Shown one piece after another: positions 1,428 through 23,203 of a stretch of 64,000 nt of DNA. The notes under the pieces are model-generated. The model ran no database searches. It was given only the letters and a program-made list of their open reading frames with translations, and was not told where the DNA came from. The DNA comes from Lophium mytilinum. Its lineage: Eukaryota. The translations under genes were made by a program, and so were the position numbers. The stretch is from assembly GCA_010093605.1 (NCBI GenBank), contig MU004183.1, positions 1,426,001 to 1,490,000 on the forward strand, written 5' to 3'. Positions within the stretch are counted from its first letter, which is position 1. The number at the start of each line of letters is the position of its first letter.

Positions 1428-4052
1428 ATGAGGCTCTCTACTTCTACTCTTTTGATCTCTGGCCTGGCTGCCCAGCAGGTCACTGCTACCTGGGACCGCT
1501 ATGCTTCCGTCTTCAAGAACCCCACGAACTGCAACAACGAGTGCACGGACAAACAGAAGTCGGGCTATGGCTGGGGCGATCTCCCCACCGGCAAGTTCGA
1601 TTCTTATGACGACTTCAACTTCAGTGGAGGGTGGACTTGCGCCAACAGCTTCGGCAAGCGTGATGCCCTGACCAAGAGGACCTTCAACAGCAAGTGTGCT
1701 AAGACCTCGGTCTCCAAGACTGCTCCCGCGTCCTTCTCCTGCAGCAAGTCTTCCGGCTTCTCTGTGGACGAGCTGCAAGTGTCCGTCGAATTCAACTGCA
1801 ACCTCGAGTTCCACTACGGTATGGAGGATGGTTCCACCTGTAAGCAGGTGTCGCCCTGCCAAACGGAGGGCACCATCGTCAAGAACACCCAGTGTGGCGG
1901 CGCCAAAACCGTCCAAGTCTACCTCGGCGACCATGGCGAGCAGGGCAAGGACAGCTGCGAGATTGGTCTTCATCACATCGGCTTCAACTGCGACTCTCAC
2001 TCCAGCTCATCCGTTGTCGTTTCTACCCCCACCCCATACAGCACCGGATGCATCCCGGGCTCCTATGGCTGCAGCGTGTCTTCTGTGGTCGTTTCTACCC
2101 CAACGCCCTCCAGCATAGGATGCACCCCTGGTACCCCAGGCTGCGGCGAGTCTTCCGTCGTTGTTTCTAGCCCAACACCAGCTAGCTCTGGATGCGTTCC
2201 GGGTGCTTACGGCTGCGGCGAGTCTTCCGTCGTGGTCTCAACCCCAACTCCATCTGGAGGCGTTCCCTTCACCAGCGTTCCCGAATCGTCTGCAACCGTC
2301 GCTACTGAGTCTATTCCTTCGAGCATCGTTGCGACTACTTCGATCCCATGTGTTCCCGGGACATACGGATGTGGTTCAAGCTCTGCCTCCGTCCCTGGCA
2401 CTCCTGAGTCTTCTGTTCCAGTAGGACCTAGCTCTACCCCTAGCATTCCTGAGTCCAGCAGCTCCTCAGTTGTTGTTGCGACTACATCCGTTCCCTGTGT
2501 CCCGGGAACATACGGATGCGGCTCAAGCTCTTCGGTCCCTGGCACTCCTGAGTCGAGCCCTGCTTCTGTTCCTGGCACTCCCGAGTCCACTCCCGCTTCT
2601 GTTCCTGGCACTCCCGAGTCCACTCCTGTTTCTACTCCTGGCACTCCCGAGTCCACTCCTGTTTCTACTCCTGGCACTCCCGAGTCCACTCCTGTTTCTA
2701 CTCCTGGCACTCCCGAGTCCACTCCTGTTTCTACTCCTGGCACTCCCGAATCCACACCTGCTTCTGTTCCAGGTACTCCTGAATCTACTCCTGTTTCTAC
2801 GCCAGGCACTCCCGAGTCCAGCCCTGCTTCTGTTCCAGGCACTCCAGAGTCTACTCCTGCATCTGTTCCCAGCACCCCCGAGTCTACAGTCGTCGTTGCT
2901 ACCACATCTGTACCCTGTGTTCCCGGCGCGTACGGCTGCCAGGCGAGCACAGCTTCGATTCCAGGCACTCCTGAGTCCAGCGCCGCTTCGGTCCCGGGCA
3001 CTCCTGAGTCCAGCGCCGCTTCGGTCCCGGGCACTCCTGAGTCCAGCGCCGCTTCGGTCCCGGGTACTCCTGAGTCTACTCCCGTCACTATCCCTGCTAC
3101 GGTTCCCGGTGGATACACCAGCGTTCCTGAGTCTTCTGCGACCGGCGCAGTTGAGACTGGGAGCACCCCTGGCCCAGCGCCTTACACTTCTTCTCCCGTC
3201 GTGGTTGAATCCAGCACTGTTCTCTTCCCAGCTTCTTCTTCCTCCCCTTCTTCCGTTCCCTCCAGCAACTGCCCTGGCGTCCTGCCCAAGTGCTTGAACA
3301 CCTGGATCATCACTTCCGAGTGCAAGGACAACACCGACTTCAGCTGCTACTGCAAGAACGCCGGCTTCACCAAGAGCGTCATCGACTGTGTTTCCGCTTG
3401 GGGCGCCGATTCGTCTGAAGTTCAAGCTGCTCTCTCATACCTTGTCGGTATCTGCGCGCCGTTTGTGCCCCAGAACCCCGGTCTTATCACCAACTGCCCA
3501 AGCACCGTCACCCTCGGTCCCACTCCTGCTCAGACCCCGGCATACACCGCCCCTGCTGTCCCTGCTACCACTCTTCTTATCATCACCTCTTTCTCGAGCG
3601 CAGTCGTCCCTGGTGCCTCTACTCTCGCCCCAGTTGCCTCAACTCCTGCCGGCTACACTGCTCCGGTCACGACCATCACCCTCGTCGCTACCCAGACCGT
3701 GACCGTGCCGTGCGTACAGGGCGGAACCACGATCGCCGGCTCCTCCACTACTTCTACGACTGTCACCCAGACCGTCGTCACGGTTCCCCAGGTGGCATTC
3801 ACCACCAACACCAACACTGTCCCTGGCGCCACTGCCACTCAGCCAGTGGTCAACCTTGCACCTGGCACCCCGGCCCCAGTCTACGCCACCGCCACCTCTT
3901 CCTTTGGCACCATCGTCCAGCCCTACCCCACTGGCAACGGCACCATCAGCTCCCCCTCCGTTCCCCAGTTCACCGGCGCTGCGTCTGCTCTCAGCGCCCG
4001 CTCCTTCGCCTCAGTCGCCATCGGCGCTGCCATGGCTCTTTTCGTTTTGTAG
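1428..4052 (+). CDS. Secreted, probably GPI-anchored CFEM-domain adhesin-like cell-surface protein (Mad1-like architecture), 874 aa
   Basis: Single long ORF with an N-terminal signal peptide (MRLSTSTLLISGLAAQQVTA), a Cys-rich N-domain, and Ser/Thr/Pro tandem repeats. CFEM-type Cys pattern (CPGVLPKCLNTW...CKDNTDFSCYC...CVSAW...IC...NC). Hydrophobic C-terminal GPI-like signal (FTGAASALSARSFASVAIGAAMALFVL). Confidence 0.9.
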   Translation: MRLSTSTLLISGLAAQQVTATWDRYASVFKNPTNCNNECTDKQKSGYGWGDLPTGKFDSYDDFNFSGGWTCANSFGKRDALTKRTFNSKCAKTSVSKTAPASFSCSKSSGFSVDELQVSVEFNCNLEFHYGMEDGSTCKQVSPCQTEGTIVKNTQCGGAKTVQVYLGDHGEQGKDSCEIGLHHIGFNCDSHSSSSVVVSTPTPYSTGCIPGSYGCSVSSVVVSTPTPSSIGCTPGTPGCGESSVVVSSPTPASSGCVPGAYGCGESSVVVSTPTPSGGVPFTSVPESSATVATESIPSSIVATTSIPCVPGTYGCGSSSASVPGTPESSVPVGPSSTPSIPESSSSSVVVATTSVPCVPGTYGCGSSSSVPGTPESSPASVPGTPESTPASVPGTPESTPVSTPGTPESTPVSTPGTPESTPVSTPGTPESTPVSTPGTPESTPASVPGTPESTPVSTPGTPESSPASVPGTPESTPASVPSTPESTVVVATTSVPCVPGAYGCQASTASIPGTPESSAASVPGTPESSAASVPGTPESSAASVPGTPESTPVTIPATVPGGYTSVPESSATGAVETGSTPGPAPYTSSPVVVESSTVLFPASSSSPSSVPSSNCPGVLPKCLNTWIITSECKDNTDFSCYCKNAGFTKSVIDCVSAWGADSSEVQAALSYLVGICAPFVPQNPGLITNCPSTVTLGPTPAQTPAYTAPAVPATTLLIITSFSSAVVPGASTLAPVASTPAGYTAPVTTITLVATQTVTVPCVQGGTTIAGSSTTSTTVTQTVVTVPQVAFTTNTNTVPGATATQPVVNLAPGTPAPVYATATSSFGTIVQPYPTGNGTISSPSVPQFTGAASALSARSFASVAIGAAMALFVL
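2538..3082 (+). repeat. Coding minisatellite, 33-nt unit (PGTPESTPVST / PGTPESSAASV), in two blocks within the adhesin
   Basis: Repeated cctggcactcccgagtccactcctgtttctact, several copies identical. Confidence 0.9.
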
Positions 4053-7433: not shown

Positions 7434-9104
7434 TCAGACCTCCTGTGGTGAAGACTGGTTGACAAACTTGCTCGCGGTGTGGCTGTAGCCGCCAGGAAGA
7501 AGCAAGCTCTTCTTCTTTTTCAAGATTGACTTCTGCTGAGATGGGGTGCCGTTGGGGGGAGCCTCGTTCAGTTTCTTTTGGCCGCCCTTTCCAGCTTTGT
7601 TGCCAACCAGGGATAGGATTTTGGGATTCAGGTTCTTCATCGCCGGTATCGTGTATTTAGGAAGTCCTGGCGCGATATCCGTCACGAACGTTGCAAGCCC
7701 CTCCATGATCCCCTCTTCTTCGAGCACTTCGATGGGAAGCTCCAAAAACGCTTGTAAGGCAGCCTCCCCTGCGATGGCCCTGCGCACAAGATCTCCACCA
7801 ATGCTACCGTTAGGTAGGCTAGTTTTACCGTGGGAAGAAGCTTTGGAGTTTTTGGTTTCGCTGACCATGGTGCTTTCGCCCAGAATATCGTCAATGATGG
7901 GGATCTTGAAAGGCAAACCAAACAATTCTTCGCCGCCCGCATCGCTGTCGACCATAGCGCTTTCGCCCATAACTGTGGTCAGGATTTTGGGGATTTTGGA
8001 GAGGAAATCGAACAGCCCCTCTTCGCCTGGTTCGCCATCGGCCATAGTACTTTCGCCCGTTCTGAGAATGTCGTCAAGGATTGGGATCTTGATCCCAAAT
8101 AATTCTTCGTCGCCGGCCATCTCGCTTTCAGTGCCCCCGGCTGCTGCTTTTTTGGCTGCGTTCCTCTTGTCCAGAACTTCCACTCCCGATCTCAAAATCT
8201 TGCCGCCAAGTACGCGGAGATGCTTCCACGGTATTTTGCTGAAGATGCTCTCCTCATCTCCATCTCCGGCCATACTGCTCTCTGCCTTCTTGTTCCCCGT
8301 CAAAACACCGTTGAGTAGTCTGCCGGCAACATTGATTATGGGCCCAGCCAGAGACCAAAGGAATTCTTCTTGGCCTTCACCGGGTGCAGGTGCATCTTTG
8401 TATGCTTGTATGAAACTATCCATAAGCTTGGTGCTCAATGGACCTGCCGCCGAGGGAATAGCAAGTCGAGAGTTTTTCCAGTAATGGTCATCAAACGAGG
8501 TGCCTTGATGGCAGTTGTGGCCTTTGGGACCAGGCCGCTTCAGCTGATCCAGCACGATTCGGAGAACTGGTTCTATGATCGAGTCCATGACAATGGGAGC
8601 TGCGGCCGCAACCTTGATGCCGATTGTGTCGATGTGGTGCTTCATGGCATCCTCGACCTGCCGATTGTAGGGTGCGTCCAGGTCAAGTCTTTCCACCACT
8701 CGAAATGCGGCTTCCGCAAGAATCGCTCGCTCAAGCGTGCCGGCAGGTGCCACTACTGACAATTGCTTCCCCGCTTGCGCCTCTCGAAGCAGCGCAGATG
8801 CAGCGTTCAAAGTGAAGCCTGCCAGAGCTGCAGCTGGATATCCAATTGGGCCTATGGAAGCTGGAGCAGAAGGGAAATCCAACTTTGCTGGATCGGGAGG
8901 AGAAGCCACGAAGATTGCACCCGACATAACTCGATTGTAAACTGCATCATGGTTGTGTTTTGATTCTTCGGTGTGTCGGGGCAGACTTTTAGGCACATTC
9001 TCTGGTGGAGGTGCAGGTGCAGGTTGCCCATTGCTGGAATCTCCATATTCGACCGTCTTTGTGTGCTTCTCATCGGTGGTGGTTTCCCTTTTGACGCCTG
9101 ACAT
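7434..9104 (-). CDS. Hypothetical 556-aa intracellular protein with tandem Glu-delimited amphipathic peptide repeats (candidate peptide polyprotein)
   Basis: Uninterrupted ATG-to-stop ORF with no signal peptide. Five units of (G/T/A)ES-xM-acidic spacer-EE-amphipathic segment, plus a duplicated helical motif (LERAILAEAAFRVV / LVRRAIAGEAALQAF). Confidence 0.8.
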   Translation of the reverse strand: MSGVKRETTTDEKHTKTVEYGDSSNGQPAPAPPPENVPKSLPRHTEESKHNHDAVYNRVMSGAIFVASPPDPAKLDFPSAPASIGPIGYPAAALAGFTLNAASALLREAQAGKQLSVVAPAGTLERAILAEAAFRVVERLDLDAPYNRQVEDAMKHHIDTIGIKVAAAAPIVMDSIIEPVLRIVLDQLKRPGPKGHNCHQGTSFDDHYWKNSRLAIPSAAGPLSTKLMDSFIQAYKDAPAPGEGQEEFLWSLAGPIINVAGRLLNGVLTGNKKAESSMAGDGDEESIFSKIPWKHLRVLGGKILRSGVEVLDKRNAAKKAAAGGTESEMAGDEELFGIKIPILDDILRTGESTMADGEPGEEGLFDFLSKIPKILTTVMGESAMVDSDAGGEELFGLPFKIPIIDDILGESTMVSETKNSKASSHGKTSLPNGSIGGDLVRRAIAGEAALQAFLELPIEVLEEEGIMEGLATFVTDIAPGLPKYTIPAMKNLNPKILSLVGNKAGKGGQKKLNEAPPNGTPSQQKSILKKKKSLLLPGGYSHTASKFVNQSSPQEV

Positions 9105-11581
9105 ATTGACGTAGTGGAGCTGGAAAGTGTAGTGGTCGAGGTCTTATGAATTGAAGTGCTTGAGGATGGTTACAAGCAAGAAGAATCGTCGACAGGTTGC
9201 TGATATCTTGCTCGAAGCAAGTCTCAAGCTTCGAACAGCCTTTTATACCTTTGCCATCAGAACGCGAGGGCTACAAACGAATGTCGAGCCCTGTACGCGC
9301 TGCGAACACATTCATCTGACCATGGTTGTGGCAACACATTGACCGGCTTGTCGAACCACTGCAAGACATTTCCTAAACTAGCAGCAGACATATTCCCGAG
9401 GACAAATTAACCGATGTGCTGCGCTCTAGATTGTCTCTTGCTGATCACGAAACTAGTTTCCAGCTGAGATGTGAACGACAATCCCAGCTATCTCGTCTTT
9501 CCATGGAAGCAGATTAAGCGATTGAGAGCTGTTGATACGCGTATGCATGACAGTGGAGGTGATTTCAAGGATGTATGGTGCGGAATTCGCTAATGCTGTG
9601 GTCTTTGGGCTTCGATGTAGTTGGAGGATAGCGTATTTCATAGATCCGAGTATACCGCGCGTCATACATGATACAGGCAAGCTGAAGTTGAGGGCCCTGG
9701 TCCACCTGATAGTACTCGTAGCGGAGCCGTGATAGCGTTGCCATTGAACAAGAAGACTGATCGCCATATACTAGACCCAATCCACCAGTTCGGGGGATGC
9801 CCTAGAAAGTTTTGACCGTTTGGCACAAGCGGGCAAGCGCTCAAGGACCCAATTTGGCGTGGAAGCAAGACTGGGGGCCGCGAAACGATAAAATTATCAC
9901 GCAACCTGACTTGAAGTAGATATTGGCTGCTTGATGCATAATCCAATTAAAGAACTGGCCTCACGTTGGGGGAGGATTCTTCTTGGTCATGTCCCCATCG
10001 GGGAAGCTGATCTGCAGCAGGGTAGGTGCCCAAACCAATCAGCACTTGAAGCGAAGGCTGGATGCCATTCTGGTCCGACTGCACCTTGTACCGTCTTACT
10101 ACCTCAGCTGAGAAGCAACAGATGGCTGCATCTCTATACGGCAGTGCAGGGGTCTTGTTTTCGGCGAGAAGTAGAAGCTTTGCACCACGTGCCTACGTGC
10201 ATGGTGGGTAAATTTCGAGCCGAGATCCAGGTAAACAGGCCCTCTCCGGCTGTTCCGTAGCGCAGAACCGAAAAAACCCAAGTAGTTGCAAGTTGGGATT
10301 CGGGTAGTTCCCCCTCTTTGGTGGTTCTGCAGCGCGGGCAGTGGCGAAGCGAATAGGTACGTGACATCTATTGCTGCCCAAGAAGAGATGGGCTTTGTGG
10401 GACCGGAGTGGGATGCAGCTTCTTACCGGATCGTCCTCATTGCAGTGGGTGGGTAGGTGGGACCAAGCCCATCATGACCATCCCATTACGTTCCGTTGCA
10501 GGACGAACCGGGCAAGGCGAGTGTGACGGAAGGAGAATGCGGTCATTGAGCGGCAAAGAAAGCCAGCATCGGACTCCAATCATGACGGCAATCGTCCCAG
10601 AGGGCGGGCGTTCGGCTTTAGAGCCGCATTAGAGGGGCGTTAGAGCCGCATGATAGCTCGCTTAGATTTGTCGGGTGCAAAACAGCGTTCGTCTCTTGGC
10701 AAACGTCCCTGCCACACACACGTTAATTTGTATAAGGAACGTCGGGATCCTACCTAGAGAACTTAATTTTTTTACCGCATCTTAACGCCGCCTAACTTAA
10801 TAATTAGTAAGGCTATTAATACTATTATAGAGGCTATATACTAACTTTTTCTAGTATTATAGTGCCTCTAAAAGCCCCTAATACCCGCATTCCCGCGCAG
10901 TTAACGCGTAGTAAAGCCCGCCACATCTCCTTTAATTAGAAGGCCTCTGCCTCTACTATTAGTACTCTAGATAAGGCTGTTTCTAATTCTCTAGGTATAT
11001 TAACGCCTGCTTCTAGAAAGGCGCTAAAGGCTTTAAAGGCTGCGGCAGCGCCTATAAAGGCGCCTACGCCTATAAAGGCTTCTATAAAAGTGCAGGCGCG
11101 CATAGTAGAGTAGGCCGCCTAATATAGAGAGAAGGCGCGCTTAATAGAAGAAAAAGACCTATTATAAGATAAAGTAGAGGCTTAAGTTACTAGATATCTA
11201 TTAGCTACTACCGCGTGTAAAGCTACAGGTAAGAAGCCTAAAGCTGCAAGAGGCTCTATAAGAGGCTCTATAAGAGGCGGCAGCGCCCTTTTAGATACTA
11301 TAGTAGCTTCTACTAGCTGTAGAAGAGGCTCTACTACTAGTTATAGAAGGGGCTCTACTACTACTAAGTTAGTAGCTAAGCGCCTAGCAGCTCTTAAGAA
11401 AAGGCGCCCTAATATTACTATTAATCCGCCCTAGGGCTAGAGTATTAGTAGCACTTTATATAACTAGTACCCTGGTTTACTTAAGGCTAGATATATATAT
11501 ATTAAGACTCTAAATAAGCGTAAGTATTAAAATATAGAGAATAGAATAGACTCTAATCTATTAAGAAACAGCAATAGTAAG

Positions 11582-13338
11582 ATGCCGCCTGGCTAGACGC
11601 CGCGAGGCAGATACTGTAAGCGTCGCGCTAATAAGGTTGCAGTAGATATAGAGGAAGTAGATAAGAAAGAGAAAGAGAAGAATAATCTACTAATATTACC
11701 TAAGCCGGGCGAGGAGATAGATAAGGAGCTTAAGTACTTTATAGAATAGTTTATAGCGGAGTATCTTAATAGAACTAGTAGGCGCCTCTCTATAAACTAG
11801 ATAAATAAAATTAAGGCGAAGGCGTATATAAAGAAGAGGAGGTAGTTATTTACTAAGATAGACCTAACTATATCTAATATTAAGGTAATATTTATATCTA
11901 TAAAGTAGCTTATTAATAACTTTATTATACTTATATTATCTAAGTTATTTATAAATAGTAAGACTATTAGCTAAACTATATAGCTAAATAGCACGCGCGT
12001 TTAGCTTAATAGTAGAGTTATTAAGAAGAAGCTTAAGAAGATAGTAGAGAGAGCTATTTAAGAGGGTAACTATAATACTATTTATAGAGTTATTAAGCGC
12101 ATAGCTAGCGTTAGAATATCTACTAGAAGAGGAGGAACGCGCTATTACAATCTAGAGGACTTCTTAATAATAGAGTTTACCTAGGTGCACGCGCTAATAG
12201 ATATAATATAGAGGGACTATCTGCGCTTAATAATTATAGTTATTTTTAAGTATAAGGTCTTATGCAACGCCTAGGCGCCGCCGGCTAAAAGAAAGAGATC
12301 TAAGCAGCCTAATAGCTTGTCGCCTGCGCCTGCATTAGGTAGAAGGTACTATACTAGTAAGCTATTAAAGCAGTAGTATATCTAACTAGGTTACTATACT
12401 AATAGGGGAGATCTTAAGCTTAAGGTTATAAAGGACTAGATATATATAAGTAGTAATTACTTAAATAAGAATAATAGTTACTTTATTAATAAGGGTAAGT
12501 AGTACTATATTTTTCTTTTAAAGTACTATAAGATATAGGTAAATACTATACTTAGTAATAACGCTATAATTTATGCTCCTCCTGCAAAGCTACTCTAAGA
12601 GCTAATAGAAAACGGGCTAATTAATAAGTAATACTAGAGGCCCGCAAGGACTATATAGGCGCAGTTAGTATAGTAGGTAGTATAGAATACCTAGAATACT
12701 ATAGCCGGCTTTATAGATGTATAGATAAAGATAATATAGATAAAGATAGCTATATTAATATCTAAAATAGACTTTAACTAGCCTTTATAGTAGCTGTAGT
12801 AGGCCCCTTTCCCCTTCTATTACCCTTAGCCGCCGCTATACTAGGGGGCTTCTGCGCCGCTAAACCCCTATGCTATAGCTAGATATACTTCTTTTCTATC
12901 TACTTCTACTCTATAGCCTACTTCTACCCTATAGCCCTCCGCGGCGCCCCTTCCTCGCGCGCTAGTTATTTAACCTAGAAGCTTAAGCTTTATAGCGCCG
13001 GGCGTGGATAACACTAAACTAATAGAGGCCTTCTTCCAGTGGAAAGTAGATAATATAACTAACTAAATAGCGCGAGCAATATAGGTTAAGGCCGCCGGCG
13101 TCTACTTGCAGCAGGCCTGGACCTTAGAGTTCCTCTAGGAGATAGAGGATAGGTTCTTTAAGGCGTATAAGATAGCTATAGATAGAGAAATACTAGATAG
13201 AATAGCTATAAAGTTTATAGATAAGATCTATAGGTTTAAAGACCCCTATAGAACTATATAAGCAGTAAAAAACCTAGTAGATCTAGTAGATATATATATA
13301 AATGCGCATAGAGAAGGCTTTATTCTAGAGAGAGAATA
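11582..13338 (+). pseudogene. RIP-mutated non-transposase (cargo/accessory) ORF inside the transposon
   Basis: Protein-like frames interrupted by TAA/TAG stops, e.g. ~13021 IEAFFQWKVDNITN*IARAI*VKAAGVYLQQAWTLEFL*EIED and ~12420 KD*IYISSNYLNKNNSYFINKGK*YY...NAIIYAPPAKL. Boundaries approximate. Confidence 0.55.
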
Positions 13339-13504
13339 GTAGTATATAGAGTATATATAGAGTATATAATTATATAGCCTTTCTATTTAATATATAGACT
13401 ATATAGCCTTCCTATTTTAGTATTTCTATTTTAAATTAGGGCTATTATAATGTGGGGCTTAAGTATTAGTGCGGGCGAAATGTAAAAATATATCTTAATA
13501 TTAT

Positions 13505-13718
13505 AAGGCTTAAGTATTAGTAGTAAGAATCTAATTGTAATATTTTGCGGCTTAAGTATTAGTAGTAAGAATCTTATTTTAAGGCTTAAGTATTAGCGCA
13601 GAGGAAATTTACCCTGCGCTAATACTTAAGCCTTAAAATATTAAAATTAGATCCTTACTACTAATACTTAAGCCGCAAAATATTAAAATTAGATCCTTAC
13701 TACTAATACTTAAGCCTT
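13505..13718. repeat. Internal palindrome of the transposon built from ggcttaagtattag-containing subunits
   Basis: Three ggcttaagtattag copies at 13507-13596 mirrored by three ctaatacttaagcc copies at 13619-13716 around cgcagaggaaatttaccctgcg. Confidence 0.85.
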
Positions 13719-15139
13719 AGGTTAAATTATATATAGAGTATATATAAAATAGAAAGGCTATATAGAGATAGAATCTATTACTTTATTATATCTTAGTAAA
13801 TATAAGTCTAATTTATATAAATAGATAGCTAAATTACGCGTCTAGACGCGTATATTTATATCCGCGTGCTAGATATATAGAAATATTAATTAGTAGTAAT
13901 AAACTTTTAAAGTTACGGTTATAGTTCCTAAGTATATAGTTAAATAGGCTTAATTCTCTACTTCTTTTTTCTAGTATAACTAGCCCTAGGCTTTAGAGCC
14001 TGTTTAAACGCCACTATATCTTCTGCAGCATTAACCTAAGTATAGCGCTTACTTCTAACCCTATATATACTATATTTACTACCTAGGTTATTATTAGTAT
14101 AGAAATTAATATTATACTAATAATAGCCCCTAGCAGGTATATTCTAGGCGCACTCTAGGTATACACCGCAGGCTAGGCCTGCCTAATTCTAGCTATATTA
14201 GCCGTTAATAAGCTCTATATAGGCGAGCTTAGCGCGGCGGGAGCGCTTTTAGAGGGCCGTGGCAATAGTAGAGGAGCTAAGGGCAGCGGCGAGGTTATTA
14301 GTATACTAAAAGAGAGTTAGCAGGCCTAGAATAATAGTAATAGTAAGGGAAGAGGGCAGGCGGTAAGCGCGGCGCTTTCTATATAAATAGGTTAGCTAGA
14401 TTCTTAAGCTACTATACTAGAAATTATATATAGCGGAGGGGGATTAGTTCTCTCTTCTTTATTCTTATTCTTATTCTTATCTTTATCTTTATCCTTCTCC
14501 TAGTTAGGTATATTGTAGATATCTCTACTAATAGTAAGAGTAGAAAGGGGGTGTACGGGCCTACTATGCACCGTATAAAGCCTCTAAGGGCTAGAATCCT
14601 CTAGGCTCTTACTAGAGGAAGCTTCTAGCTTCTTATCTTTAGCTTAAACGCCTATTATCTCCTCCTTAGTAAGGAGCGGCCTAGCCGCTACTACCTATAT
14701 TACTAGAGGATCCGGGCGAACCCTAAGGGGCCTAAAGGGGTGCGCGGTAAGAGGCGGAGAGAGGGAGGGCTCCGCAAGGACGTTGTTAATTAGGCTATTA
14801 ATAGAGCCCTAATTGCTAGTATTATTAGCTATAGTATTATTAGCTATAGTATTATAGAGGCAGTAATTAATAGTATATAGAGTCTAAAGAAAGAAGAGAG
14901 TTAAGAAAGAGGTAAGAATATATAGAAAAATAAATAATAGCTATTAAGCTTTACTATATAACTTTACCCTGCACTAATATATAAGCTATAGATTATCCGC
15001 CAGCGCTAATACTTAAGCCTTAGCCTAGATAGTATATAAAAAATAGCAATACTAAAATAGTAATACTAAAATAGTAATACTAAAATAGTAATACTATATA
15101 TAGAGTATATATTAAATAGAAAGGCTATATAATTATATA

Positions 15140-16277
15140 CTCCTTAGCCTACTTCTTAGCCTATTTCTTAGCCTACTCCTTAGCCTACTCCTTCTTAACC
15201 TAGATATTAGTATCTTCTCTCTTATATATATCTAGCTTAGTATATACTTACGCTATATACTCTCTTACTATATATATTCTACTAGCCGCATACTAGAACT
15301 AGTAGGCAGTAAACCTATTATAGCAACTCTACTTAATTACTGCCCGTAAGAAAGTACTAAAGTTTAGATAGTAACAGCGCTTATAGTAGTAGTTATAGTA
15401 GATCTAGGCCTTAAGCGTTATAAAGGTTAACTTAATAGAATTAAAGTTAGAAGAGTATAGTAGAAGGTAGTATACTAGGTAGCCCTAGGCCTCTATAGCC
15501 TCTATAACGCAATTATTAGTATATATACCTAGATTATCTATTATAATTACCTTAGATCTACTATTAAATACCTACTGCAGCGCTAGCAGCAGGTAGTTAA
15601 TAACCTAGCTATAGAACTTATTGCTATTAAAGTATCCTTCTTAAACGCCTATGCACGGTAGCTAGCTCTTCTAGCTTATTGCCGCGTATATACTCTACGT
15701 CTTACCTCTTATTATATTACCCTAGTAGCGCGCAGGATTACTAATAGGTGCGTACATATAGTAGCGCCAACTAGTCTTCTTATTAAAGATAGATTTATCT
15801 AGAAAGATAAGATTATTAGCCTTATACTTAGAGAGCTCTACTAGGTAACTAAGCTGTAGCTCTTTACTTACTCTTAGTAACTCGCGCTTTACCGCCTTTC
15901 TACTCTAACTGCGTTGTTTTATTATCTAGGAGATAGTAGACTAAGAAATGTTAGCACCACGCTCCTTATTAAGCTAGACCGCTATCTTATCTTAATTGCG
16001 CTATTCTTCCGCCTTTAACTACTTAAAGAGCGCGTTCTTATCCGCCTATAAGAGCCTATACAGTTATTCTACGCGTAGTTAACGCGGCCTTATTAGAGTC
16101 CTGTATACTATTATATTACTCTTTATATTCTAGATAGTCTAGACGTTAATTCTAACCTTATACGCAATAGTATTAGAATACTAGCCTAGTTAAAGAAGTT
16201 ATACGGTCTGCATACATTAACGGGCGGTAACGCGGTGTTAATTATTGCCAGCGGACCTAGCGCTAGCAGTAACGCAT
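15140..16277 (-). pseudogene. RIP-mutated Tc1/IS630-family (DDE_3) transposase
   Basis: The minus strand at ~15550-15400 translates VIIIDNLGIY...GYLVYYLLLYSSNFNSIKLTFITLKA*I. Reversing C->T/G->A changes gives VIVMDN..H...YLPPYSPDFNPIE...LKAWI, with 34 residues between D and E. An ATG lies just inside the right TIR; boundaries approximate. Confidence 0.8.
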
Positions 16278-16646
16278 AATTCTTAATCTACTATACTAGA
16301 AAAAGTTAGTATATAGCCTTTAGAATAATATAAATAGCCTTACTAATTATTAAGTTAGGCGGCGTTAAGATGCGGTAAAAAAATCAAGTTCTCTAGGTAT
16401 AATCCCAACGTTCCTTATATAAATTAACGTGTGTGTTGCAGGGACGTTTGCCAAGAGACGAACGCTGTTTTGCACCCGACAAATAGCAAATGACCGTTTT
16501 GGGTTGGCCCTTCTCCAAGGCGGTCAGGCGAGTCACGTGGATTGACAATCTTTAACGACGACAGACTGCGGCGAAATTGAACAATTTGATGCGTACAGTC
16601 CTGGGCGTTGCGCCCATCCATCCTCTTGCCCTAGCAGCTCAGTCCG

Positions 16647-17834
16647 TCATGCTATGCTCAGGTTCAGCGATTTTCGAATCGCCGCGTTCGCTTCTGTCAG
16701 CAAGACGCTGCTCGACCCCGAGCTGTTACAGCAAACATTGCCCGAAGCCCATATCTCACACGGCTGTGCACTCATATCTCCTAGTACAGCTTCCTCCATG
16801 TCTGAGCCTAGGCTCGAAGGCGATCTTGCTTTCCGTTCGAGAAGCGTTTGACTTGTGCTCAAGAACCGACCGATAGTCTCCCACTTCGCCGAGAAATCTT
16901 GGTAGAATCTGATTTCCATCTCAACTACTTTCTGGTCCCTACAGCAAGCTAAATAGACCTTTGTTCGATACGCCGATGTAGTGATATGGAGTGCAGCGAC
17001 ATGCATGCCGAATCCGGCAATCGTGGAAATCATGTTCGGCAAATTTACGTCGTAGTGGCGATCGTAAGTCGAAAGATGAAATCGGTCATATCCTGCCCCG
17101 TCGGAATATGTGCTTCTCTCGCAAAAGTGGGTAGGCTCGACGGGGAGAGTGTGCTCAGGAATGCTTTGGATTTCGGGAATGTTTTGGATTTCACCTGGTT
17201 GTTCCTCAATGGCTGGCACAGGTTCGTTTCCATCCCCAGTGTGATACAAAGGCTGCGTTGCTGGTTGCACTTCTAGAGCCGGCTCTTGCGTTTTGCTTTC
17301 AAATGCTTTGATGGAAGTGCTGTACAAAGCCTCGTCAAAGTCGATCGTGAAATGAACGGCTTTCAATATGTTAGCGGCGCCGACTATAGAGTAACCCAGC
17401 GCATCTTACTGTAGTCCATGCCAATAGTTGACGGCCCTTCTTGTCGGATTCGAAAGAAATTGTCTGGAGCAGATAATACTCGACCAAAGGCTCTATTGCT
17501 TCCCCACGGGAAGCCACCTTCGAAGGACAACTGGAGCACCATCTCGTTCACCGCCTCAGGCTCCGCTCCAACATCCAACACATAGTTTACACAACCTTGT
17601 GCACCAGCTACCCCTAGTCGGATGTTAGACATGGCTTCGATAACTTGAAGGGGACTTTCCTCTCGCTTTCATTTCATGACTCTCTCCACATTTGATGGTG
17701 CTGGCGGGGGTAGAATTGGGAACCCAAGAACCTTGACTCAGGTAGTGGCTCTGGTAATTGAGATTAAGTGAAAGTTTGTTTGTGATCACGATACGGCACA
17801 ATTGCTCGTATGGCGATTTAGAGGATGCCATCAT
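16647..17834 (-). CDS. Aegerolysin/Cry34(ET79)-like beta-sandwich N-terminal domain plus an unknown C-terminal domain; 3 exons; intron 1 has a non-canonical GA donor (possible pseudogene)
   Basis: Spliced N-terminus CRIVITNKLSLNLNYQSHYLSQGSWVPNSTPASTIKCGESHEMKAR|GVAGAQGCVNYVLD...LQLSFEGGFPWGSN...GMDY|TVHFTIDF follows the aegerolysin-like pattern (I.N...L......L..G.W....P..I..G ... G..G.V.Y ... P..GSN). Intron 2 (17409-17360) is canonical. Intron 1 (17659-17614) begins GAAAGT. Confidence 0.6.
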
Positions 17835-18589
17835 GCTTTCACGATTAGATCTACGAGTCATCTTTTACGCTCATATATGAGAATTAGGTGGACGAGAGAG
17901 ATACATGAGTACTACTACTTGAGAAAATCGATGCGTATCCGTCATTATGGGTGTGTCTTTCTTGTTCCCAAAAGAGTTGACTAGTCAAAGATCTACGGTC
18001 ATAAGTGTAGTTCTTAGACTAGCCAAGATGCCTGTGGCTAGCTGAGGAGGAGGTGTTGCAAAGATTGATTCGCAAATAGCCTTGCCTCCGTACAATCCTA
18101 TGTAACATCATAGAAGGCAGCTGAAAGATGCGCCTGCATGATGTATCTCGGTACACCGGCTGTTCCTTGTCGGCATTGCCTGCGCTTTCGACGCTTTCGG
18201 AAACGATTTCTTCGATTCGTCTTGGCTTGCATTTACGTGATCAAATACGTTCATGTGTAGGTAGAACAGGCAAAGTCTCATTCATATTCAAGATCTGATT
18301 GCTGGAATTCGTGCTATACCAGGACGCAGTCATACCCCAGATGTTCATTTTAGCACCAAATTTCTCTCCATATGTCCGCTATTGTTCTATCAAAACACTA
18401 TGTTTCTCGTCCTTTCGAAGCGCTCAGAGCTTGGTCCAGATCAAAGTCATCTCATAAACACGAGCTCGTGTTAGACTGAGGGGTGATCGTCGCTGGTCTG
18501 GTGACGAGAGTCCCTGGTTGGTGTGGGGAAGTTACCAGCTGAATATCTGCATCATCAGTGGGGCATACCAAAGCACAAAAACCACGAAT

Positions 18590-19220
18590 CCCGTCTTCTA
18601 ACCGAGCTTAGCCATGTCAAATGCTCCGTATCAACTGAGACGATGTGGAGTACAACGGGAGGCGAAGGCTTTGCAGACGATGGATCAGCAGTTTTTCTAG
18701 CTGCAGGAGTCGAGCTGCAAGCTGGGGGGGGCCAGCTGCAGTCTTCTTAGCGAACTCACTCGTATCAAAGGCTAATTGGCAACGGAGACGATGCGGAGTG
18801 TGATAAGGGGAGGAGGGTTCGCCGACGATGATGGATCAGCAGATTCTCTAGCTGCAGGAGTCGAGCTACAAGCTGGGGGGGGGCCAGCTGCAGTCTTCTT
18901 AGCGAACTCACTCGTATCAAAGCCCAATTGGCAACAGAGACGATGCGGAGTGCGACAGGGAGACGAAGGCTTTGCAGACGATGGATCAGCAGACCCTCTA
19001 GCTGCAGGAGTCGAGATGCAAGCTGGAGCAGACCAGCTGCAGTCCTTTTAGCGAGCCCAGCTGTATCAAAGGTCGATTGGCAAACGTAAACGATGCGGAT
19101 TGCATGAAGGAGGCGAAGGCTTTACAACCGATGGATCAGCAGATGCTCTAGCTGCAGCAGTCGAGACACCAGCCGGAGGGGACCGAGTATAGTCGTCTTA
19201 GCGAGCTCAATAGTGTCGAA
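18590..19220. repeat. Four ~150-bp imperfect tandem repeats in the divergent intergenic region
   Basis: The unit gagacgatg(t/c)ggagt...gaaggctttgcagacgatggatcagcag...ctagctgcaggagtcgag...gctgcagtc..ttagcga recurs at ~18637, 18786, 18937 and 19088. Confidence 0.85.
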
Positions 19221-19501
19221 TCCCAGAAGCTGAGGTCTCGTGGATGTTCCGTGATACGAACTGTGACCCATCTACTCTAAGCCGTAAATATTTGCAAGGG
19301 GAATATGCCAGCCGATAGCCGTGCAAGCGACTTTCATTAGATCAGAGCACACACGATGAATCTTAGCATGTGCAGCCATGTATGACCGATCAGGAGCAGA
19401 TTCAGGTATAAATGAAAGACGTGAAACCCACATCAGAATCGAATATACCGCACTTTTTACCACAGCTTCGTTCCTCATAAGACCAACCAACCAACGACGA
19501 A

Positions 19502-22500
19502 ATGCCTTTCATCAACTCCCGTGTCGATCAATCCCATGACATCTTATCGAGTGCTTCGAATCTTCAAAACAAGGATTTTGAACTTCGTAGTCTCGTGGCA
19601 GGTGTATGGGATCTAGCGTCAGCTGAAGCAGAGGCTCCGGCAGAAGCCGACTGGGTGCAGTCCCTCAATCCGGGCTCAGAGTCGGTGGTTGGTGAGGATG
19701 AGCGCACGCCAGTGAAGCCGGAAGATTACGCCTCTGGAGGGAAGTATCGCTGTAAGTGTACACAAATGATGCCGTGTTTTGCCTGATTTGCGTACTTACA
19801 AGAATCTAGCAATCGTCAAAATCTTTGCGCAATACGAATATTCGAGTGGGTGGGCTATGGGAACTGGTTGGCTAATCCGCCCTGACCTAATGGTGACGGC
19901 TGGCCACATCGTCTTCAATCATTCACCCAAGTTTGGTCGAGCATCTGTTATCAAAGCGTACATCGGGTACACTGGTAAGAAGTCTATCGGAACTCCTGGC
20001 GTTCAGTTCCGCACTGGTGTCAGATGCGTCACCACAGCAGCCTGGCTCGGTCGAAAAGGGGCCAAACCATTCGATGTAGGATTTGTCAAACTTAACAAAC
20101 CCTTCGAAGGCATTGAGCCAATCGAGTTTATGGAAACTCCTACCAGTGGTAATGATGAGCTAGGAGTCGTCGGCTATCCTGGTGATCTCGAACATGATGG
20201 CGAAAGAGGCGCCCTTATGCATGAGATGTTCATCCCAGTGAGTGAGCCGGTTGTCTGAAGATTTAACTTATTGCTAACAACGCTTAGCAAGAGTTCAACC
20301 TCGCCGAGCAGGACTTGAGAATGTTGGAGTATACCATCGATACCTTCGGGGGTACGTGAATACCCTAAGCTTTGCTATTTGGCTTGCTGACCTTCTGTGC
20401 TTTAGGTAACTCCGGATCTCCGGTTTTTCTGAAAAGAGGCTCTTCCACGAAAGCTGTCGGAGTTCACGTTTATGGCGGCACAATCAATTCTGCTTCTGTC
20501 ATCGGCAAATGGGGCAATCCATTCGAAGATTATGTGTCCGTCATGAGTGCTCAGATCCCAGCTGATGGCGGTCTCCATTACTTGCCGGCTTCTCGCTCAA
20601 CGGCCGTTAGTCTCTCCGGCGATCCCAAAGACAGCAAGTCATTATACACTCCGCTTGAACATGGAGGGAAATACTTGTCAGACCAAAAGTCGCAGAGCTT
20701 TGGATCGTTCATCGATGATGTGTGGAGCAACTACACGACAACGGAGAGCAGAAATGAATGGAACAACAACTGGAGCAGTTACGACTACAACAAGAGTCAA
20801 GAATCTCAGGATACAAACAGTCGAACCGATGCTGACAAAGTTGTTCGCTTCCGAGACGGCGGCGAGACTTCCCGGGACCACGCTTCCCAGGACCACGCAT
20901 CCCAGGACCATGCATCCCAAGAGCACGCATCCCAGGACCACACATCAAGCAAGGGAAAAGTCACTAAGACGGTAGAAACACACACCACGACAACGACTAC
21001 TAAGATAGAGATAAATGACGGTGATGGGAGTGTCGAAGACTCAAATGGGGGGCTTGCTCGCGCAGATAGAGGGGGCACCGAACAGAAGTCTGGCGGTTCT
21101 AGTAGCAGGTCAGTGATTTCCTCGAAAGGCTCGACACAAGCGCTGACAGATACTAGCCAAAGCCAACTTGAGGACTCTGGTTCAAGTAGAACTGTGCGAC
21201 AGTCCGGGGAAGATACCGCACGGTCGGGGACGGACTCTGTCAACAAGGGCTTGTCGAGAACGGGTGAACAAGCTACCCATGATGGTTCAAGTAGCGCCTT
21301 GAATCAGACACGTCAGGACTCATCTCAAACCACGAACCGGGGCTCAAACCAGTTTGGCGGAAGTACCCAGAATGAAAACCAATGGTTTGGAGGACACAGC
21401 CAAACCTCGAATGGGTCCGACGGTTCAGGCAAGGCGCACAATACAGACACGACATCATCCCGAAGCCAACAAAATACAAACACGATATCGTCTCGAAGCG
21501 AACAAACCGCAAATCAATCAAGTGCGACAACTACTAGCAAAGGATTCTCGAGTAGCTCCACCAATCAGAACAGTCAGCAGAACAGTTCTTCTGGTAGGAA
21601 GGCCTTGTCCGATCATTGTTTCTCTTCCCAAGCAGGTTCAGCGATTTGCGCTGGCTGTGGAAAGAGTCAAAAAGATTGCTCTTCATCTGGCGCAATATAT
21701 GCTGACTTCAGACAACCTCAATCTACTACAAGTATAGGCATATCGGGGAGCAAGAGTGAGCTGACATCGGCGAGAGGTGGATATTGGTCTTCACAAGCGG
21801 ACACTAGAGGCTACTATCAGTCTCATGATACGACATTAGGTACGCTGGATGGAACGGATCCCAGAGGCTACTATGAGTCTCGGAATACGACGTTAGGTAC
21901 GCGAGATGGTGCGCGTGATCTCTGCATTGCGTGTGGACAGCCCGCCTGCCCATTTTCGCAAGGCATATTCCGGGACTTTCAACGACACTTCCCTGTTTCA
22001 GAGAACAAGGAAAACTTCCCTTACTTTTGGCCTGGATGTCTGCCACCAAATGAATTACACTCCAGGTAAGGCTTTGTCTTTCCAACATCCCTCTAACGCG
22101 ATTCAAGCCTTTTAAGCAAGCTTCCTAGATACAGTAACGCACATGACTGACTTGTACGCTCACAGTGGAACTGAAAGCTTTACATTGTTCGGCCCCAAGG
22201 GTCAACAATCGATCTATACCGAGCAGATGGCGGTATGGCAACTAGGCACCGCCCCTTGGCACCCTCCTTCCACAAAGGATGTGAAACTAGGACAACTTGG
22301 GTGTTTCAACGATGATGGGACTTGGCAAGTCATTGCCCAGATAACAGATCCAAAGGAAATCGCAAAGGCGAACCAAAGAGCCTACAACCGCCAGAAGCTT
22401 CTCAAACCCTTTTCCACTGGCGTTCCTGCCATCCGCTCAGCCAGCAACACCGAATGGAGCGCAAGAATCACTGCAAATGTCACGAGTACTGACCTTTCAA

Positions 22501-23203
22501 CTAACGCGAAGGTAGAGTAAGTATTACTTCCAGCTAAAGGAGTTGATCATGGTGACTAACGAGAATCAGCGCTGTGCTACCTGTGAACGCCGAGGTCAAA
22601 TTCGCCCTATCTAAGAAAAATTCCAAGGGAGCAATTCTGGTAGTAGAGAACCCCATTACCAAAACATGGTTCGAGTCAGGAGAGACGTCGTTCAAACGAT
22701 GGATCGACGACAACGTAGACGCACTCAAATCGAACTGGGCGAAGGAGCTGGACCGAGGCTTGTGGCTCATCAAATCTCTGATCACAACGAAAACGGCGTA
22801 TATCAGTGTTCTCAACAGTCAGAAGAGTGAGCTCACTATTGGGGGTCACGTGACAGTTCCGGGATATGGAGGTGGAGGCGCCAATTTCGGAAAGACAAGC
22901 TCAATGAAGGTTGATGGGTGGGAAACCCATACATCCGGCCCTGTAAGTTTTCAGTCAGTGAAAACATAAGTAATAGCTTACTAAGTCGTCACAGGATGAA
23001 CAAAGAATCGTGTTCATGTCCGCTTATCGTTATGACAAAGGGAAGCTATGGGGGGTAAGCAATTGAATCAGTGGCAAATATAACGGAGATACTAACATCT
23101 ATAGATAAACCAAATTGAAAGCGCATTGACAGAAGATGAAGAATGCATTGCCATGATAGATAGAGATGGAAATATTATCCGTAATCCCTGGGTCGTCAAT
23201 TGA
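19502..23203 (+). CDS. Fusion protein: V8/glutamyl-endopeptidase-like (chymotrypsin-fold) serine protease - low-complexity linker - fungal gasdermin (RCD-1/HET-Q1-like) domain; 8 exons, 1094 aa
   Basis: Exons 19502-19751, 19810-20237, 20288-20351, 20406-22065, 22166-22516, 22570-22942, 22995-23054 and 23105-23203; all introns GT-AG and phase-compatible, total 3285 nt. Protease motifs: VTAGH, FDVGFV, DTFGGNSGSPV, GVHVYG. Gasdermin-like motifs: IYTEQM...GTAPWHP...KLGQLGCFNDDGTW, GAILVVENPI, FKRW..DN...L...GLWLIKSLITT, DGW..H...DEQRIVFMSAY. Confidence 0.8.

Follow-up and report, generated by a model that had tools for sequence, protein, structure and literature searches.

A detached helical domain with Glu-bounded modules next to a glutamyl endopeptidase-like protease gene in Lophium mytilinum: a candidate precursor of amphipathic peptides

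The stretch analysed here, called the window below, comprises 64,000 nucleotides of Lophium mytilinum (GenBank assembly GCA_010093605.1, contig MU004183.1, positions 1,426,001 to 1,490,000 of the forward strand). It contains an intronless open reading frame (ORF) on the minus strand whose product of 556 amino acids (aa) carries five units delimited by Glu residues, and, divergently transcribed from it, the gene of a protease that resembles glutamyl endopeptidases. An initial annotation, made from the sequence, had read the 556-aa protein as a polyprotein of amphipathic peptides that might be released by this neighbouring protease. The features of the ORF are as follows, with confidence of the AlphaFold2 model given as the predicted local distance difference test score (pLDDT), and with a hyphen after the boundary Glu marking the candidate bond.

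7434..9104, minus strand: intronless 556-aa ORF that stands alone as a copy of the helical 'E-G-Φ-Φ-D' domain found C-terminally in a family of fungal Glu-endopeptidase-like proteases
8535..8957, minus strand: N-terminal part of the helical domain, residues ~50-190, including the first module, which is degenerate, and, at residues 122-134, the helix GTLERAILAEAAF; pLDDT 82-97
8280..8369, minus strand: unit 1 (U1), residues 246-275, EE-FLWSLAGPIINVAGRLLNGVLTGNKKAE (EE-FLWS...KKAE), equivalent of EEGFFDII... in relatives
8127..8255, minus strand: unit 2 (U2), residues 284-326, EE-SIFSKIPWKHLRVLGGKILRSGVE...GGTE (EE-SIFS...GGTE); net charge +6
8052..8108, minus strand: unit 3 (U3), residues 333-351, EE-LFGIKIPILDDILRTGE (EE-LFGI...RTGE); net charge -1
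7962..8024, minus strand: unit 4 (U4), residues 361-381, EE-GLFDFLSKIPKILTTVMGE (EE-GLFD...VMGE)
7875..7931, minus strand: unit 5 (U5), residues 392-410, EE-LFGLPFKIPIIDDILGE (EE-LFGL...ILGE); net charge -2, hydrophobic moment 0.14
7581..7784, minus strand: conserved C-terminal module, residues 441-508, with the helix RRAIAGEAALQA, then LEEE-GIMEGLATFVTDIAPGLPK...; pLDDT 83-97

The five units occupy residues ~241-415 (window 7860-8385) and lie, as the initial annotation had described them, within a single minus-strand reading frame. Each follows the same plan, consisting of EE, a hydrophobic or amphipathic core, (A/T/G)-E and then S-x-M-(A/V), and a sixth site of the type found throughout the family, EEE-GIME, is located at residues 462-465. 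A regular expression for Glu-(G/S/A)-Φ-Φ returns seven matches, which amount to six distinct sites (246/247, which share the same EE, 285, 333, 362, 392 and 464). The DNA beneath the units is indeed repeated, in the form of degenerate direct repeats (families D1-D6, within 7863-8375, at 69-89% identity), the best example being 7882-7909 in U5 against 8065-8092 in U3, which are 89% identical. Tandem Repeats Finder reported three short rows (periods of 15, 9 and 6) and no long-period array, so the array is old or degenerate and does not form a clean tandem repeat. An overlapping plus-strand ORF of 312 aa (7546-8484) was dismissed as an antisense shadow, the minus-strand frame being the one with homology support.

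Amphipathicity across the units is well above expectation and unevenly distributed. Specifically, residues 245-416 contain 39 windows of 18 residues with a hydrophobic moment above 0.4, compared with 7.7 +/- 6.9 in shuffled sequences, none of 500 of which reached 39. U1 (net charge +2, moment 0.40), U2 and U4 are amphipathic, U4 (moment 0.47, net charge 0) resembling the family consensus E-G-Φ-F-D more than any other unit. U3 and U5 have a net negative charge and are proline-rich. The description in the initial annotation needs correction for these two, given their charge and the low overall moment of U5. The N-terminus (MSGVKRETTTDEKH...) is hydrophilic and, as read from the translation rather than with a predictor, shows no hydrophobic stretch and no apparent signal peptide, and dibasic sites are irregular, the sole KR being inside U2, both of which had been anticipated. 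Searches of the 556-aa protein against Pfam, NCBIfam and PADLOC gave nothing significant. A 2,796-nt RNA-like contig spans 7076-9871 without joint or difference, which is compatible with an expressed, intronless gene. The RNA-like contigs used here come from the public run X1, for which the label 'RNA' is a guess, though the run contains spliced RNA.

The nearest relative of the 556-aa protein is P0002, an uncharacterised protein of 548 aa from the Dothideomycete Mytilinidion resinicola, which is 81% identical to it end to end, and for that reason the single-exon model can be taken as complete. P0002 retains all five units together with the EE/GES boundaries while the cores differ, in agreement with the earlier view that cores diverge between conserved spacers. 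At the position of U4, for instance, the window protein has an E-E-G-L-F-D unit and M. resinicola a copy resembling U3. Neither protein has a protease remnant, and both begin ~50 residues ahead of the helical core. In M. resinicola, P0002 and P0170, the orthologue of the window protease, are each reported from a contig of 1,221,752 bp.

Beyond this orthologue, the 556-aa protein belongs to a large family that has no Pfam model. A hidden Markov model (HMM) built from seven sequences recovers 385 representative clusters (50% identity) at E<=1e-3, and 283 at E<=1e-10. The distant matches of the first search are 29-37% identical and include P0003, a 769-aa protein of the lichen fungus Seirophora scorigena, the N-terminal half of which is a trypsin-fold peptidase and the C-terminal half of which aligns with the 556-aa protein (29-31% identity over P0003 residues 421-734). 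When P0003 is placed on the window by tblastn, its protease half falls on 19502-20617 of the plus strand (54% and 43% identity) and its helical half on the 556-aa ORF (31% and 29%), so that the two divergent genes are matches to the two halves of one protein.

Fusion of the two parts in a single protein is common within the family. Among the listed domain homologues of at least 560 aa, 24 of 38 have a Trypsin or Trypsin_2 domain at the N-terminus, and many of the shorter homologues start within the protease and are evidently truncated models. The reverse search, made from one exon of the window protease, yielded 103 homologues, 89 of them of at least 550 aa, and the helical domain is present in 80 of these 89 (seven-sequence HMM, E<=1e-3). 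A word-index search for longer fused relatives of the 556-aa protein itself found none; the fused relatives came from similarity and profile searches. Since the protease and its candidate substrate are one polypeptide in most fungi, their association has independent support of the Rosetta-stone kind. The 556-aa protein is, by these alignments, a detached, split-form copy of a domain that is fused behind an S1 protease in most Pezizomycotina and in some Mycena.

Named members come from Lecanoromycetes, Sordariomycetes, Dothideomycetes, Eurotiomycetes, Pezizomycetes, Orbiliomycetes and Geoglossomycetes, plus Mycena, and in databases they are labelled 'serine protease', 'glutamyl endopeptidase', 'ATP synthase F1' or hypothetical. 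The occurrence in Mycena (P0239, P0244, P0251) takes the combination of protease and helical domain into a basidiomycete genus, the rest of the range being ascomycete. A different unannotated C-terminal region, a '...TTFFVNF...' domain, follows the protease in Fusarium and Penicillium members (P0264-P0268), once together with an H-type lectin, and the family can therefore be viewed as a protease chassis with an exchangeable C-terminal module. Members from Microdochium and Cercophora (P0053, P0056, P0110) have an extra tail of ~250 aa behind the helical domain, and one Fusarium model (P0091) runs on into non-ribosomal peptide synthetase domains, which may be a fusion of gene models. A search of the literature, supplements aside, returned no paper on the helical-domain/protease family, and scans of metagenome contigs with the gasdermin-like domain described below and with an alignment returned no relatives.

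In distant members the helical domain is a duplicated pair of modules. The A type consists of an acidic tract, E-E-G-F-x-D-I-x-K and a Gly/Pro-rich hydrophobic helix that ends in ...A-E-S, and the B type of a helix E-R-A-I-L-A-E-A-A-L, a loop, E-E-G-I-F-S-D-M-K and then an A-P-x-V-x-K-V-A-P helix. More generally, a module can be described as beginning with an acidic run whose last residue is Glu; G/S/A-Φ-Φ-(D) comes next, and a K/G/P-rich hydrophobic or amphipathic helix of 20-45 residues follows, often closed by (G/T/A)-E-S. Two R-A-x-L-x-E-A-A-L helices alternate with the modules and hold the strongest conservation of the family (R 94-99%, E 87-96%), above that of the cores. Both helices are present in the 556-aa protein, which aligns with the family throughout; its R126, A127 and E131 (in an alignment of 133 sequences), as well as R442 and L450, are nearly invariant. 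Its C-terminal module is equivalent to R654...E676-G677 of P0003, where the Glu is conserved at 92% and the Gly at 80%. Repeated Glu-(G/S/A)-Φ-Φ junctions are likewise a family trait, with at least one such site in 73 of 74 full-length fused relatives and most often two to four.

An AlphaFold2 model of P0003, based on 133 sequences, predicts the domain as long helices with pLDDT mostly above 90, joined to the protease by a disordered linker of 70 residues, and places the four E-E-G-Φ-Φ motifs at the first turns of helices 390-405, 484-536, 590-609 and 670-676/678-720. In the model of the 556-aa protein, pLDDT exceeds 90 over residues ~50-190, 240-270 and 435-505. The earlier picture of a simple string of peptides is thus to be replaced, as a confident helical domain that includes U1 is predicted. 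U1 lies within the predicted helix 243-269 (pLDDT ~86-89) and aligns with the ESEEGFFDII module of P0003-P0007, so it is the ancestral second A module of the conserved domain and not a lineage-specific repeat, a correction to the initial description. The residues that hold U2-U5 (282-430) are of low confidence, with pLDDT below 50, and specifically so for residues 282-311 of U2 and for U5; these units should therefore be accessible. U2-U5 are, on this alignment and model, extra module copies inserted after U1 in the Mytilinidion lineage, where they form a flexible insertion. Searches with the 556-aa model found little resemblance elsewhere: VIA-align 2 against PDB representatives gave generic three-helix or spectrin-like pieces only (best Z 6.7), and Foldseek against the PDB gave no informative match (best E 0.16).

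The protease gene and the element that separates it from the ORF comprise the following features.

10666..16484, no strand assigned: degenerate DNA transposon between the two genes, 5,819 bp, with terminal inverted repeats of 197 nt that are 94% complementary
19502..20623, plus strand: propeptide and Glu-endopeptidase-like S1 protease domain (exons 19502-19751, 19810-20237, 20288-20351 and from 20406 onwards)
20624..22065, plus strand: low-complexity linker of about 480 aa, rich in S/T/G/Q (S 18%, T 11%, G 10%, Q 8%), 78% identical (376/480) to P0170
22166..23203, plus strand: gasdermin-like domain of about 294 aa (exons 22166-22516, 22570-22942, 22995-23054 and 23105-23203)

The two genes stand head to head, with the protease start at 19502 being 10,397 bp from the start codon of the 556-aa ORF, so that the distances originally given (~10 kb, or ~4.6 kb without the transposon) are confirmed. 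Directly upstream of the protease start codon, at 18657-19233, a tandem repeat of ~150 nt is present in three to four copies (72-90% identity). The window protease domain is 90% identical (287/320) to that of P0170, its introns are all of the GT..AG type, and one of its exons scores 27.4 bits for Trypsin_2, just below the cutoff of 27.6.

Several lines of evidence relate this protease family to enzymes that cut after Glu. The best PDB sequence match of P0003 is the Bacillus intermedius glutamyl endopeptidase, BIGEP (1p3c, E 1.3e-7), and with a profile of 96 sequences glutamyl endopeptidases occupy the first nine places among 14 PDB matches, V8 (2.4e-10) and BIGEP (2.5e-10) being followed by Esp. 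Foldseek with the AlphaFold2 model of the protease ranks 1p3c first (target-normalised TM-score 0.78), followed by the V8 entries 1qy6 and 1wcz. The predicted model has a chymotrypsin fold, and the catalytic triad is retained in the family (His116 in 95/96, Asp172 in 96/96, Ser250 in 86/96) and in the window protease, which keeps TAGH, DVGF and GNSGSP. Glutamyl endopeptidases share His213 and Thr/Ser190 in their S1 site (PMC5508998), and at the aligned positions the fungal family has Thr '190' in 87/96 and His '213' in 90/96 sequences. The neighbouring protease is, by sequence and model, kin to the Glu-specific enzymes and shows the fold, triad and S1 residues of the V8/BIGEP group. The 'Glu-protease' of the initial annotation is accordingly well placed as a glutamyl endopeptidase-like S1 enzyme, its actual preference for Glu being probable from this kinship.

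A second feature of the group concerns activation. In V8, BIGEP and Esp, Val1 of the mature enzyme contributes its alpha-amino group to the S1 pocket, so that specificity arises only once the propeptide is removed, and Glu-SGP processes itself at Glu(-1)-Val1 (PMC5508998). In the fungal family a candidate site for such autoprocessing is E60-S61 (19679-19684; NPGSE-SVVGEDER in the window protease), with E60 in 82 and S61 in 76 of 84 sequences. Chain residue 2 is where the profile alignment to 1p3c starts, which places E60 and S61 at positions -1 and +1 of the BIGEP mature N-terminus. Autoprocessing at this Glu-Ser bond may be inferred, and would point independently to Glu specificity. The bacterial enzymes of subfamily S1B (V8, BIGEP and Esp; 1qy6, 1p3c, 4jcn) thus share with the fungal ones the fold, triad, Thr190 and His213, and the fungal segment after the conserved Glu-Ser aligns with the BIGEP mature N-terminus of a group whose S1 pocket is gated by a propeptide (PMC5508998). 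They differ in that the fungal enzyme has no signal-like N-terminus, for which reason it is presumably intracellular, in that the junction is Glu-Ser instead of x-Val, and in that the fungal enzymes bear a C-terminal helical domain of 350-450 aa or, here, a linker and a gasdermin-like domain. The 2017 review of glutamyl endopeptidases covers bacteria and viruses only, and none of the words in its text starts with 'fung' or 'eukaryot' (PMC5508998).

The window protease gene does not end with a helical domain. An intron at 22066-22165 (100 nt, with a GTAAGG donor at 22066, an ACTGAC branch site and a CAG acceptor) joins the protease ORF in frame to SGTESFTLFGPKG..., and the resulting model of eight exons (19502-23203) encodes 1,094 aa with no internal stop, all of its introns being GT..AG and 50-100 nt long. 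P0170 of M. resinicola (1,132 aa) has the same succession of protease, long S/T-rich linker and further C-terminal domain, and across the last ~265 structured residues the two species agree at 97% (257/265), compared with 90% for the protease and 78% for the linker. The only PDB sequence matches of this domain are bacterial gasdermins (9v2s_A, E 0.017; 7n52_A, E 0.022), and these cover residues 124-208 only. Among the named ESM-Atlas clusters, the nearest (scores 0.91 and 0.89) have Bact_GSDM on 11-13% of their members, and a Pejvakin/Gasdermin cluster (0.84) ranks lower. Pfam and PADLOC gave nothing for the domain, and its first exon (exon 5 of the gene), searched alone, had no gasdermin match and only a chance-level match to an OSCA channel (E 0.26). 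The domain is probably gasdermin-like, and modest evidence suggests that a canonical intron links it in frame with the protease, directly behind which it lies.

The contigs of run X1 leave 10857-21876, including the protease exons, uncovered and say nothing on its expression. One of them (21961-22500) passes unspliced through the proposed intron at 22066-22165, and others skip 22501-22560 and 23046-23096, both of which have CT..AC ends and are therefore best explained as minus-strand introns of an antisense transcript over the gasdermin-like ORF. Because these joints belong to the antisense transcript, for which no long minus-strand ORF was found, the run is no test of the plus-strand gene model or of the fusion. 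In the tail of the domain (23105-23203), Glu-X bonds (…NQIE-S ALTE-D…) occur where the two species cease to match. Microbial gasdermins have short inhibitory peptides at the C-terminus, and by analogy this tail may be a cleavage region for a Glu-specific protease.

In fungi, the published partner proteases of gasdermins are S8 subtilisins and CHAT caspase-like enzymes (PMC8851545, PMC12881547). The main texts of Clavé et al. 2022 (PMC8851545) and of a 2025 review (PMC12881547) do not contain the word 'trypsin', nor does the former contain 'fused', and a fusion of an S1 protease with a gasdermin was not found in the literature searched. The published pairs, such as HET-Q1/HET-Q2 and the clusters of fungal gasdermin and protease genes, link a protease gene to a pore-former that is activated by cleavage (PMC8851545, PMC12881547), and the gasdermin-like ORF of the window similarly follows, and is apparently spliced to, a protease. 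In contrast to those pairs, the enzyme here is of the S1 Glu-endopeptidase-like type and the link may be covalent, and the 556-aa protein is helical and no gasdermin. By analogy, a probable protease-gated pore-former in the slot that elsewhere holds the helical domain favours a role as gated effector for the latter as well; alternatively, the retained 556-aa protein may be a regulator.

The residues at the module boundaries bear on how the helical domain might be processed. Of 365 G-Φ-Φ-D occurrences in 245 domain-bearing proteins, 336 are preceded by Glu, seven by Ser and none by Asp. Individual Glu columns are conserved as well (in P0003 numbering, E395 85%, E452 77%, E540 72%, E594 84%, E632 92%, E676 92% and E721 63%), and the second set of these (E452, E540, E632, E721), mostly followed by Ser or Ala, closes the hydrophobic segments. 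P0195 and P0247, which are too diverged for the HMM, still hold six to eight copies of P-E-G-F-(F/W)-D-D, and the motif therefore behaves as a short functional motif. Over 542 sites, the 12 residues up to P1 are 24% acidic and 8% basic, and the 25 residues past P1 are 50% hydrophobic, 9.5% basic and 8% acidic. Within the cores Glu makes up 2.6% of residues compared with 7.1% domain-wide, and Asp 2.8% compared with 4.6%.

Taken together, these observations are read as a domain of the protease family that became detached and that would be cut after Glu into membrane-acting amphipathic helices, with a probability of roughly 0.5 for this reading as a whole. The proposed mechanism would (i) begin with the protease shedding its propeptide of ~60 residues at the conserved Glu-Ser bond, whereupon the new N-terminus would complete the Glu-binding S1 pocket, as in BIGEP and V8, (ii) continue with cuts in the helical domain after the boundary Glu residues, in cis in most fungi and in trans here, on the product of the divergent neighbour, and (iii) end with the separation of acidic and conserved helices from amphipathic ones, the latter acting on membranes as a cell-death or defence effector. 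Cleavage at the boundary Glu residues by the cognate protease is considered slightly more likely than not, and membrane activity of the products is the more tentative part, being less likely than not. The 'lytic peptide arsenal' of the initial annotation is a reasonable inference, and the anionic, proline-rich U3 and U5 would be unusual as lytic or antimicrobial peptides.

A number of findings weigh against peptide release, and some of them also speak for the alternative that survives best. According to this alternative the helical domain would stay uncleaved and serve the protease in regulation, scaffolding or membrane anchoring, E-G-Φ-Φ-D would be a helix-start element (an acidic cap plus aromatic packing), a docking motif or a pseudosubstrate motif, and the 556-aa protein would modulate the neighbouring protease/gasdermin-like protein, for instance as an inhibitor or tether, and would not itself be cut into peptides. 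The fold is helical at high confidence, and the E-G-Φ-Φ motifs of P0003 sit at the N-terminal turns of such helices, U1 being likewise helical, so that the motif may have a structural role and, in the folded state, be hard for a protease to reach. The strongest conservation falls in the R-A-x-L-x-E-A-A-L helices, which a pure spacer model leaves unexplained. Of the four ancestral Glu-Gly junctions, the alignment shows two to be gone from the 556-aa protein, namely those of its first A and B modules, while the fold is retained, and the gene of this protein has been kept although the window protease has another C-terminal domain. Also unfavourable to peptide release, the anionic, proline-rich U3 and U5, the latter with its low moment, differ from classical cationic lytic peptides; the depletion of Glu from the cores is just modestly stronger than that of Asp; and the gasdermin assignment depends on marginal E-values over an 85-residue stretch, with the first exon, Pfam and PADLOC silent.

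The usual N-cap residues of helices, however, are Asp, Ser, Thr and Asn, and before G-Φ-Φ-D these are almost absent (Ser in seven and Asp in none of the 365 cases), which speaks against a capping function. The motif is moreover present in many copies where fold-level sequence similarity is gone (P0195, P0247), and amplification has kept both boundaries while the cores drift, in a region of low confidence that is probably flexible. An uncleaved domain is thus considered unlikely, while carrying more weight than any other alternative.

Detachment and cleavage of the domain, the reading preferred here, can be compared with systems in which a similar logic is known. In arterivirus nsp4 and sobemovirus Pro-VPg, protease and substrates are one polypeptide, the setting is intracellular, and Glu cuts are made in cis and in trans by enzymes with His213 and Thr190 (PMC5508998). 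The fungal fused proteins would, by analogy, work like these Glu-cut viral polyproteins and also like protease-gated gasdermins. Unlike the viral polyproteins, they are cellular, their proposed products are short amphipathic helices as opposed to replicase subunits, and no sequence kinship was found beyond the fold.

A second comparison concerns multi-peptide precursors, among them Ece1/candidalysin, the Kex2-processed repeat proteins (KEPs) and the amphibian precursors with acidic propieces, in which an acidic spacer and an amphipathic core are repeated. Conserved boundaries and divergent cores are shared by the 556-aa protein, whereas its units have Glu boundaries, lack a signal peptide and dibasic sites, form part of a folded helical domain and belong to a family in which relatives are fused to the protease. 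The comparisons with frog aureins and Ece1 made in the initial annotation are resemblances only.

Among the remaining alternatives, the acidic tract and F-F-D could represent FFAT-like (two phenylalanines in an acidic tract) or other short targeting motifs that dock to an organelle receptor, such as VAP at contacts of the endoplasmic reticulum, with the repeats raising avidity. The family consensus, an acidic tract followed by E-G-F-F-D, is superficially like the FFAT core E-F-F-D-A-x-E, but it has an extra Gly between Glu and Phe-Phe, P7' is mostly Lys instead of an acidic residue, four of the five window units are without the F-F-D core, and the long hydrophobic helix after the motif is atypical of a disordered linear motif; targeting of this kind is quite improbable. 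A secreted multi-peptide precursor of the Kex2 type (like Ece1/candidalysin or KEP) or a precursor of ribosomally synthesised and post-translationally modified peptides would account for repeated peptide units with conserved spacers. This was rejected as very improbable, as the signal segment and regular KR sites of the Ece1/KEP type are missing from the 556-aa protein, its relatives are fused to a protease that also starts without a signal-like segment, and no Pfam match lies above threshold. Lastly, the units might be low-complexity repeats that drift without function in a protein conserved elsewhere, as suggested by their position in a low-confidence insertion not present in distant relatives and by the variation in unit content between the two closest species. 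This was likewise rejected as highly improbable, given that both species keep five units with EE/GES boundaries at 81% overall identity, that the units copy a module conserved family-wide, and that their amphipathicity is above that of all 500 shuffles.

If cleavage into amphipathic helices were to hold, substrates would be defined for a glutamyl endopeptidase family, the first one that is cellular and eukaryotic, and a helical peptide-releasing module would join the protease-gated fungal executioners, which so far are gasdermins with S8 or CHAT proteases. Hundreds of diverged membrane-active peptides, with acidic neutralising partners built in, would also become available as a natural library. 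A broader proposal, which is speculative and rather unlikely, is that of an unrecognised 'protease-executioner' class, widespread in Pezizomycotina, that processes itself: the propeptide of an intracellular Glu-specific S1 protease would be removed at Glu-Ser, cuts at Glu-Gly and Glu-Ser would release amphipathic helices kinked by Pro or Gly, which would permeabilise membranes, and this peptide-based, non-gasdermin effector of cell death or defence would be swappable with a gasdermin on one protease chassis, as the present locus would illustrate, having been split off as a separate gene, with its peptide module amplified five-fold, in the Mytilinidion lineage. The split arrangement makes testing easier, as the enzyme and its candidate substrate are encoded separately. 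Fusion of the protease with the gasdermin-like domain, if real, would be an undescribed gasdermin architecture, and even without peptide release the helical domain represents a large family that lacks annotation and has a motif of unusually sharp Glu specificity.

The element at 10666-16484 looks like a degraded DNA transposon, possibly mutated by repeat-induced point mutation. It has a GC content of 0.33-0.36 at 12-16 kb and no stop-to-stop ORF of at least 70 aa except 11186-11434, and an RNA-like contig (9862-10660) ends at its edge. The window is otherwise eukaryotic in style, with sparse ORFs and this AT-rich block at 12-16 kb. On the plus strand, an ORF of 874 aa (1428-4052), GC-rich (0.59-0.61) and strongly skewed, contains a CFEM domain (PF05730, E 5.4e-8), and two adjacent ORFs at 23812-25332, which probably belong to one intron-containing gene, match Phytase-like (PF13449, E 4e-13 and 1.2e-20).

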